The position numbers and the translations under genes were made by a program. From NCBI RefSeq assembly GCF_017348835.2, contig NZ_CP071375.1: a stretch of DNA of 64,000 nucleotides, one strand, 5' to 3'. Of the stretch, positions 50,377 to 52,871 are shown piece by piece; positions within the stretch are counted from its first letter, which is position 1; each line of letters begins with the position of its first letter. Origin of the DNA: Escherichia coli. GTDB taxonomy: Bacteria; Pseudomonadota; Gammaproteobacteria; Enterobacterales; Enterobacteriaceae. Below the pieces are notes generated by a model. The model had not been told where the DNA came from and did no database searches. It saw nothing but the letters and a program-made list of their open reading frames with translations.

Positions 50377-50476
50377 TCTTTTTGTCTCGTCTGCTCTGAA
50401 GTGGTGAAGTGGTTTACTGAATTTGGCCACCTGAACAGAGGTGATATGCTCACCTCAGAACAACACAGGTGCTCCA

Positions 50477-50739
50477 ATGAAAAAAAGAAATTTTAGCGCA
50501 GAGTTTAAACGCGAATCCGCTCAACTGGTTGTTGACCAGACATACACGGTGGCAGATGCCGCCAAAGCTATGGATGTTGGCCTTTCCACAATGACAAGAT
50601 GGGTCAAACAACTGCGTGATGAGCGTCAGGGCAAAACACCAAAAGCCTCTCCGATAACACCAGAACAAATCGAAATACGTAAGCTGAGGAAAAAGCTACA
50701 ACGCATTGAAATGGAGAATGAAATATTAAAAAAGGCTAC
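50477..50739 (+). pseudogene. insN: IS911 orfA (InsN), truncated by the IS30 insertion after about codon 87
   Basis: Translation follows IS911 OrfA up to …EILKKAT, then runs into the IS30 terminal repeat at 50740. Confidence 0.8.
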
Positions 50740-51960
50740 TGTAGATTCAATCTGTCAATGCAACACCCCTTTCAATTATCTCTTTCGGTGTTTTGAACTT
50801 CAGTGTCTTTCTCGGTCTGTTGTTTAGCTGAGCAGCAACCAGATCTAGTTCATGTTGAGTATATTGGGCAAGACATGTCTTTTTAGGAAAGTACTGCCGA
50901 ATTAGCCCATTTGTGTTCTCATTTGTTCCCCGCTGCCAAGGACTCTGAGGATCGCAGAAGTAAACTTTAACGCCGGTGCTGACAGTAAATTCTAGATGTC
51001 TGGCCAGTTCCATTCCTCTGTCCCATGTCAGTGATTTTCTGAGTTCTGACGGTAAACTCAGGAATTTGTCGGTAAGAGCCTGATTTACTGAGACAGAATC
51101 TTTGCCCCTGAGTCTAAGGATGATCGTATAACGTGATTTTCGGTCTACAAGTGTGGCTATATGAGAGTTTTTTGTACCTGAGACTAAATCGCCCTCCCAA
51201 TGCCCCAGAGAGCGTCTGTTATCGATATTTCGGGAACGTTCGTGAATTGGTGTTCCGTTCACTATGTTAATCGTACCTCTTTCGCCTTTGCGGGTATGAC
51301 GCCTGCCATGGCGAAGGCTATGCGACCGTCGCAGATGCTGTATATTCAGGTGGTGTAGCGCTTCACGGCTACGAAAGTACAGCGTTTTATAAATTGTCTC
51401 AGGTGATATTCGCAGCGTTTTTTGACGTGGTTTTGTTCGCCTTAACCATCCTGATATTTGCTCTGGAGACCATTTCATCTCCAGCTTTTCCAGAACAAGC
51501 TTTCGCAATGGTAAATTTTGATCCAGTAAGCACGGTTTTGGCCTTTTCGCCATTCTGTTGGCTCGGTTATTAGCATCAACAGCTTTGTAATAGCGTCTGC
51601 CCCGATTACGCTGAACTTCACGTGAGATCGTCGAAGGACTGCGATTCAGCGCAGTAGCTATCGCACGAATGCTCATTTTGGCTGACAAACCAGCTCGTAT
51701 CTCCTCGCGCTCAGACAGTGTCAGGTGAGCTACAGCCCGCTTATGCTCATGGGGTTTTATGCCGCCAGTATCCCTTAACATAGTGAAGATCGTTCCGGGT
51801 TTTGAACCCAGGATATTCGCTATTTCACTGAAGCCTGTTCCGTTCTTCCATAGTTCAAAAACAGAGGCTTTTTCCTCTGCTGTAAATGTTCGTCTCATTC
51901 AAAAAACCTCCGCAACCCCATGTTTTCACATAACTGTTGCGTTGACCAATTGAATCTACA
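50740..51960 (-). mobile_element. IS30, complete 1221-bp copy inserted into IS911 orfA with a 2-bp target duplication (AC)
   Basis: Terminal inverted repeats tgtagattcaat… at 50740 and …attgaatctaca at 51960; AC at 50738-50739 and 51961-51962; the IS911 sequence resumes at 51963. Confidence 0.9.
50747..51898 (-). CDS. insI: IS30 transposase (InsI), 383 aa
   Basis: [41 protein letters not shown]… matches the IS30 transposase. Confidence 0.9.
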
Positions 51961-52028
51961 ACCGCGCTCTTGATGTCAGACTCCCTGAACAGTTCTCGAT
52001 AATCAGGAAACTCAGAGCGCATTATCCT

Positions 52029-52867
52029 GTGGTCACACTCTGCCATGTGTTCGGGGTTCATCGCAGCAGCTACAGATACTGGAAAAACCGTCCTGAAAAA
52101 CCAGACGGCAGACGGGCTGTATTACGCAGCCAGGTACTTGAACTGCATGGCATCAGCCACGGCTCTGCCGGAGCAAGAAGCATCGCCACAATGGCAACCC
52201 GGAGAGGCTACCAGATGGGGCACTGGCTTGCTGGCAGACTCATGAAAGAGCTGGGGCTGGTCAGTTGCCAGCAGCCGACTCACCGGTATAAGCGTGGCGG
52301 TCATGAGCACGTTGCTATCCCGAATCATCTTGAGCGACAGTTCGCCGTAACGGAACCAAATCAGGTGTGGTGCGGTGATGTGACCTATATCTGGACGGGT
52401 AAGCGCTGGGCGTACCTCGCCGTTGTTCTCGACCTGTTCGCAAGAAAACCAGTGGGCTGGGCCATGTCGTTCTCGCCGGACAGCAGGCTTACCATGAAAG
52501 CACTGGAAATGGCATGGGAAACCCGTGGTAAGCCCGTCGGGGTGATGTTCCAGGCGATCAAGGCAGTCATTATACGAGCAGGCAGTTCCGGCAGTTACTG
52601 TGGCGATACCGGATCAGGCAGAGTATGAGTCGGCGTGGAAACTGCTGGGATAACAGCCCAATGGAGCGCTTCTTCAGGAGTCTGAAGAACGAATGGGTGC
52701 CAGCGACGGGCTATGTAAGCTTCAGCGATGCAGCTCACGCAATAACGGACTATATCGTTGGATATTACAGCGCACTAAGACCGCACGAATATAATGGTGG
52801 GTTACCACCAAACGAATCAGAAAACCGATACTGGAAAAACTCTAACGCGGAGGCCAGTTTTAGTTGA
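52029..52867 (+). pseudogene. insO: IS911 orfB (InsO) with a 1-bp deletion frameshift near 52552
   Basis: Frame A reads …[12 protein letters not shown] then goes out of register; frame B resumes [24 protein letters not shown]… The canonical ccacagcgatc appears here as ccaggcgatc. Confidence 0.8.
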
Positions 52868-52871
52868 CCAC

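Follow-up and report, generated by a model that had tools for sequence, protein, structure and literature searches.

Evidence for an intact IS30 nested in a dead IS911/ISEc52-type element at the fec-proximal edge of the leuX island of Escherichia coli

Nesting of one insertion sequence (IS), IS30, within another, IS911, was shown in Escherichia coli K-12 for IS30A (PMC9333248), and a nested IS30/IS911 element has been described on the pSFO157 plasmids of sorbitol-fermenting O157:NM strains (PMC7175801). Here we analyse a unit of this kind, 2,471 bp long (50405–52875), that lies beside the fec genes in a 64,000-nucleotide stretch of E. coli DNA (contig NZ_CP071375.1; hereafter the window). The pSFO157 composite, set beside the window by its description only, shares the IS30-in-IS911 nesting and differs in its plasmid location. 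The closest relative is IS911B::IS30D of K-12 MG1655 (insO/insI3/insM, 4,507,125–4,509,801, by yjhV–fecE), which has the same right junction (...GACCACAACA followed directly by GACTACC), the same IS30 insertion point and orientation, and the same 1-bp lesion in orfB. A second K-12 copy, IS911A::IS30A (insN/insI1, prophage CP4-6), carries IS30 in the same AC dinucleotide, which is duplicated, with the junctions GGCTAC/IS30/ACCGCG, but its IS30 has the opposite orientation, its host is ISEc52-type in orfA and truncated on the right, and it lies at another locus; as judged from the alignment, it is an independent insertion. A nested IS such as that in the window is ordinary and already known, being annotated in K-12 and present in roughly one in five complete E. 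coli genomes.

The unit in the window is very probably an intact IS30 nested in a dead host element of the IS911/ISEc52 type, at the edge of the leuX island that faces fec. IRL and IRR below denote left and right terminal inverted repeats, and ORF an open reading frame. Its parts are as follows.

50405–50739, plus strand: left host segment, 335 bp, aligning to K-12 IS911B, ISEc52 and IS911 from base 50405.
50405–50431, plus strand: host IRL (TGAAGTGGTTTACTGAATTTGGCCACC), from the alignment.
50477, plus strand: ATG start of orfA, in the left host segment.
50728–50734, plus strand: A6G slippery heptamer (A AAA AAG), in the left host segment.
50738–50739, plus strand: left AC copy of the IS30 target duplication, from the junction alignment.
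50740–51960, minus strand: complete IS30, 1,221 bp, with IRR at 50740–50765 and IRL at 51935–51960, from ORFs, repeats, Pfam and K-12 alignment.
50747–51898, minus strand: IS30 transposase coding sequence, 383 amino acids, from the ORF listing and Pfam.
51961–51962, no strand assigned: right AC copy of the 2-bp target-site duplication by IS30, from the junction sequences.
51963–52875, plus strand: right host segment, 913 bp, with the last 12 orfA codons, orfB and a complete IRR ending ...GGCCAGTTTTAGTTGACCACAACA.
52000–52002, plus strand: orfA stop codon, in the right host segment.
52552–52553, plus strand: orfB lesion, one base deleted after 52552 with A>G at 52553, from alignment columns 926–927, split ORFs and a split rve domain.

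The nested IS30 has the size (about 1,221 bp), the 26-bp inverted repeats, the single ORF with helix-turn-helix and DDE (rve) domains and the 2-bp target duplication of its namesake. A repeat search found its 26-nt arms (TGTAGATTCAAT...) to be 88% complementary, and they are identical to the terminal repeats of K-12 IS30A and IS30D. Pfam domains of the transposase are complete (HTH_38, 1.7e-23; rve, profile positions 3–102 of 102). Over its length the element is 2 nt off IS30D and 3 nt off IS30A, and the sole substitution relative to the IS30D protein is His52 for Arg52. IS30 cuts its target with a 2-bp stagger (PMC9333248). In the window the two AC copies flank the element, and removal in silico of IS30 with one AC restores the canonical GGCTACCGCG, as found in uninterrupted IS911, ISEc52 and ISEc31. 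An earlier reading of this stretch, made from the sequence alone (the original prediction), had proposed a complete 1221-bp IS30 with an intact transposase, bounded by a 2-bp AC duplication, and both proposals are borne out.

That reading had also held IS30 to be likely still active. We counted the window allele (A at IS30 nt 217) with a 40-mer centred on that nucleotide, for which seeds match only where the window-specific base is present. It occurs in 371 genomes, at a median of 1 and a maximum of 8 places per genome, and 17 of its places are on plasmids. The presence of the allele at multiple places and on plasmids suggests that it has moved since arising, and supports the earlier view. By its sequence IS30 appears to retain all the parts needed for transposition, and present activity is likely.

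The host element, without IS30, is 1,248 bp long and belongs to the IS911/ISEc52 group of the IS3 family. Its truncated OrfA matches HTH_Tnp_1, orfB matches rve and rve_3 (Pfam), and the two genes have the organization of the family, with an A AAA AAG site for −1 frameshifting; both are now disrupted. Consistent with the original prediction, IS30 interrupts orfA, at codon 88 of 100 and 5 nt downstream of the A6G heptamer; the last 12 residues of OrfA are lost, its frame running on into IS30, and orfB is displaced 1.2 kb from the frameshift site. In orfB itself the references read GTG ATG TTC CAC AGC GAT CAA (V-M-F-H-S-D-Q) and the window reads GTGATGTTCCAGGCGATCAA: a C is missing after 52552 and A is replaced by G at 52553, so that TTCCACAGCGAT (F-H-S-D) becomes TTCCAGGCGAT. 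The first orfB fragment (52029–52628) stops early and the remainder lies in another frame (52625–52867); the first piece matches rve positions 2–65 and the second matches rve_3. In IS3-family transposases the Asp of this FHSDQG motif supplies the second residue of the DDE triad. A 1-bp deletion near 52552 and a dead host had both been claimed before, and the alignment agrees with both.

The lesion is not private to the window. The K-12 insO fragments break at the matching base, the same lesion is found at eleven further loci (O26 11368 and ten DUF8453 loci, among them ATCC 11775 and one O26-like copy, L025), the annotations of S88, USML2 and GCUET01 give orfB as frameshifted, and every fec-lineage copy examined carries the lesion. 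Because orfA is cut and lies 1.2 kb from orfB, no OrfAB fusion would be made, and because orfB is frameshifted in its DDE core, the host IS should not be autonomous. We conclude from these disruptions that it is dead as an autonomous element; both its termini are intact.

The host had originally been labelled IS911, and here the label needs correction. With IS30 removed in silico, the host was aligned base for base to one copy of ISEc52, annotated as intact on the IncI plasmid NZ_CP019905, and to one copy of IS911 from the Shigella dysenteriae plasmid NZ_CP118617. Overall identity is 96.5% to the former and 94.8% to the latter. By the convention of ISfinder, copies of the same IS share at least 95% nucleotide identity along the whole element; the value against the single S. 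dysenteriae copy falls below this, and the mosaic pattern is clear. Among 100 variable columns, those of the IRL tip (50413–50415) are ISEc52-type, those from 50473 to 52100 are nearly all IS911-type and those from 52130 to 52873 are nearly all ISEc52-type. The window thus has the IRL tip of ISEc52 and is near-identical to it from about 52130 to the end, including the same AACA tip and with one IRR difference, at 52851; it differs from ISEc52 in its IS911-type orfA and early orfB (50473–52100), in the presence of IS30 and in the orfB frameshift. With IS911 it shares orfA, where the two are near-identical, the A6G site, orfB and the TG...CA ends, but the IRL tip is CAC in IS911 and TTT in the window, the IRR interior differs, and the right tip is TTCA and AACA, respectively. 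In other genomes PGAP labels the right part of the host element ‘ISEc52 family’. Taken together, the identities and the mosaic map indicate that the host is a recombinant of IS911 and ISEc52, a mosaic and not IS911 in the strict sense.

The nature of the right end bears on where the element stops. The original prediction held the right terminus to be clipped and the element to end at 52871; in that case a true IS911 would have lost its last four bases, TTCA, and AACA would be flanking DNA. Such a loss is suggested by the S. dysenteriae IS911 and two ISEc52 copies, on Pluralibacter and Klebsiella plasmids, which end ...GACCAC-TTCA (...GACCACTTCA), where the window reads ...GGCCAGTTTTAGTTGACCAC-AACA-GACTACC. 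It is nevertheless very unlikely. The annotated intact ISEc52 of NZ_CP019905 has the same ...TTTTAGTTGACCACAACA, with AACA after GACCAC and unrelated DNA beyond. An exact 24-mer scan, with each species represented by one genome, located this end at 11 junctions in Leucothrix arctica, with different DNA after each, on an element about 65% identical in orfB; in strain IMCC9719 of this marine gammaproteobacterium an identical 27-nt IRR stands at at least 11 contig-end junctions. That two unrelated contexts should both have lost exactly four bases and share the next four by chance is very unlikely, and an end present at so many different insertion sites should be a working transposon end. Tip positions 3–4 vary naturally within the group (TGAAGTGG; TGTAGTGG in ISEc31 and the pO157 IS; TGTTGTGG at the window's right end), the 1,248 bp of the host plus the deleted base add up to the length of both references, 1,249 bp, and the K-12 GenBank annotation closes IS911B-1 at AACA too. 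The host end in the window, ...CCACAACA, is therefore best described as a substitution variant of the TTCA-form ending ...CCACTTCA, not as a loss, and the view that the terminus was lost is largely refuted. By these comparisons the host right end is complete, at 52875, and both TG...CA terminal repeats are present, the IRL starting TGAAGTGG at 50405. A second alternative, that the window is exactly the K-12 insN/insI/insO arrangement, with no difference on the IS itself, draws on the features listed at the outset and on identities of 99.4% over 50405–51960 and 98.7% over 52081–54600. Direct alignment rules it out, and we give it virtually no credence: the segments between the host ends differ in order and content, in that a 327-bp IS600 fragment (insM) in K-12 replaces window 51961–52080 (120 bp) and abuts IS30D, which has lost its right AC copy. 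In addition, the slippery run is A5 in K-12 and A6 in the window, the K-12 IRL tip is IS911-type (GGCACACTG) and that of the window ISEc52-type, and the left flank is yjhE′/yjhD′ in K-12 and DUF8453/AbiJ in the window. The claim of sameness in the original prediction thus holds for the place and direction of the IS30 insertion, for the junction on the right and for the lesion in orfB, and fails for the IS600 fragment, the A5 run and the left tip and flank. In strain GCUET01 a full IS600 occupies the position of the K-12 fragment, which suggests that the K-12 form arose from a window-like form by gain of IS600, followed by deletion from the IS30 end into IS600. On this comparison the K-12 region is best read as a further-rearranged derivative, with the window as the simpler form.

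The AC dinucleotide used by IS30 recurs as an insertion site. In three IS911-group elements, and in both orientations, IS30 lies at the same AC: in the window (50738–50739/51961–51962), in K-12 IS911A (locus L004, 4540–4541) and in the ISEc31 of O157 strain 493/89 (locus L036, 2644–2645). The O157 strains 493/89 and LSU61 both have IS30 at this position of ISEc31, at the selC locus. Away from a conserved block that surrounds the frameshift site, ISEc31 is about 70% identical; the block comprises 32 nt across IS911, ISEc52 and ISEc31 and includes the AC, 4–5 nt downstream of the A6G heptamer. Repeated use of the same AC in three host elements makes it, empirically, a hot spot.

Some copies without IS30 carry three extra bases at this position (the +3 form). 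The fec copy of O26:H11 11368 is one of them: over 2.9 kb its sole difference from the window, IS30 apart, is the three extra bases, GGCTAC-A-ACCGCG. The form occurs at the fec locus of O26 11368 (L003, ~5335), at selC of O157:H7 MB9-1 (L014, ~1317) and on pO157 (L013, ~1318). MB9-1 has it where 493/89 and LSU61 have IS30, and its alignment blocks with 493/89 overlap by 4 nt, CTAC, which points to a 1,220-bp deletion between CTAC repeats contributed by the target and the IS30 end. Deletions at microhomologies of 2–4 bp, and of near IS length, are described for IS30 and ISApl1, are transposase-dependent and are enhanced by IEE (bioRxiv 10.1101/2023.06.07.543989); IEE occurs mainly in O157:H7, O26:H11, O103:H2, O111:H8 and O121:H19 and promotes microhomology-based excision of IS30-family elements (PMC9943667). 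These IEE-bearing serotypes of enterohaemorrhagic E. coli (EHEC) head the match lists of the +3 form. The extra bases of the IS30-free fec copies (O26/O103-type) might instead be a natural variant of the IS911 group, or the product of gene conversion, and no scar. The same 13-mer does stand in elements that PGAP annotates as intact, namely the ISEc31 of O157:H7 chromosomes and the IS911-like IS of pO157. We consider this explanation improbable given the occupied and +3 states of one selC site, the near-identity of the O26 copy to the window and the serotypes that carry the form. Against it stand also that uninterrupted short-form ISEc31 is widespread (its band of 920 records at ≥99% includes partial matches to IS911-type copies) and that the fec-lineage short form without IS30 is found in only 1 of 5,426 genomes. 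Nor does the O26-type copy serve as the allele that preceded IS30, for by the junction alignment a 2-bp-duplicating insertion into the long form, GGCTACAACCGCG, cannot yield the observed junctions.

We think it probable, on the junction sequences, that the +3 form is a scar of IS30 excision. A broader proposal also has reasonable, if lesser, probability: that the AC is a natural IS30 hot spot with at least three independent insertions, and that in IEE-positive EHEC (O157, O26, O103) repeated 1,220-bp loss between CTAC repeats leaves a diagnostic in-frame +3 (ACA) scar. If so, scarred copies would have a longer spacer behind the slippery site, among the IS copies with an annotation as intact some would bear the footprint of a former nested IS, and hot spot and scar together would be a natural, sequence-level example of microhomology-mediated loss of IS30 in EHEC.

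Two further arrangements were seen at this site. LSU61 (L037, 2640–2646 and 3866–3872) reads GGCAAC/IS30/ACTGCG where 493/89 reads GGCTAC/IS30/ACCGCG, two point differences at the IS30 ends. NRZ103545 (L035, 4,170,975–4,176,075) has one IS30 between the right halves of two IS911-group elements, one IS911-like and beside a yjhV-like gene, the other ISEc31; this looks like an inversion in which two IS30 copies, both lodged in this hot spot, recombined.

Several points weigh against an intact IS30 in a dead but terminally complete mosaic host. No 3-bp target repeat brackets the host IS, which has TGG to its left and GAC to its right, and such repeats are seen on the reference IS911 (GTA) and on one ISEc52 copy (AAC). 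Its IRL and IRR agree at only 19 of 27 positions, too few for the inverted-repeat search to report, and were defined by alignment. The mosaic assignment is made against one copy of IS911 and one of ISEc52 in place of the ISfinder type sequences; the AACA tip would be a functional end in E. coli on the strength of sequence comparison; and the likely activity of IS30 is drawn from the distribution of an allele that carries His52.

The missing target repeat is matched by a history in which the left flank changed. The base triplets to the left are TGG in the window, GGC in K-12 and GTT in pOHT76, against GAC on the right, so that no sampled left junction appears to be original, which fits a later replacement of the left flank. 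For junction frequencies, 5,426 complete E. coli genomes were searched with 120-bp probes, a match requiring at least 80% cover. The right junction, between the IS end and the yjhV side, is present in 2,627 of these genomes, and the left junction, between the DUF8453 side and the IRL, in 460; the junction between IS30 and the right host segment is found in 1,016 and the whole nested unit, at ≥80% query cover, in 1,106. The excess of right over left junctions supports an old junction on the fec side and variability on the leuX side. These counts and flanks support the view, already put forward in the original prediction, that the fec side is ancestral, and would have the leuX side replaced repeatedly.

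The order of events that we propose starts with insertion of the host IS3-family element. The orfB lesion and the insertion of IS30, through a 2-bp staggered cut that duplicated AC, would have come next, and lineage-specific changes, such as the IS600 event of K-12, last. The shared right junction, orfB lesion and IS30 insertion could then serve as a marker for dating the fec-side edge of the leuX island, with the variable left side as a record of what was rearranged at the IS afterwards. Annotation is affected by two of the results, the revised end coordinate and the assignment of the host as a mosaic.

The leuX island of the window is very small (48313–50376), and the IS follows at once. Its features, with that of the flank next to the IRL, are the following.

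48313–48397: tRNA-Leu(CAA), on the leuX side.
48931–49755: AbiJ-NTD4 gene, matching the PADLOC candidate defence family PDC-S32 (6e-104).
49804–50376, minus strand: DUF8453 gene, with the IS directly after it.
50397–50404, plus strand: flanking TGAAGTGG, an 8-bp direct repeat of the IRL tip, outside the canonical IS, from the alignment.

The flank copy of TGAAGTGG abuts the IRL tip (50405–50412), giving a tandem at 50397–50412. This tandem is present at 10 of 10 loci with the DUF8453 gene, one O26-like copy included, and in O26 11368, and is absent from K-12 and from the ISEc52 and IS911 copies. An IS-free DUF8453/AbiJ flank, which might explain the 8-bp duplication, was sought among the ten exact-DUF8453 contexts, and all ten adjoin an IS.

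A scan of 50200–53300 against Rfam returned no family reaching the gathering threshold. In a few genomes (e.g. NZ_CP050998.1, 2,351,055–2,354,834) the unit is about 3.78 kb long through insertion of another IS3-family element, whose annotation includes an AL1L pseudoknot, and the nest is three levels deep.

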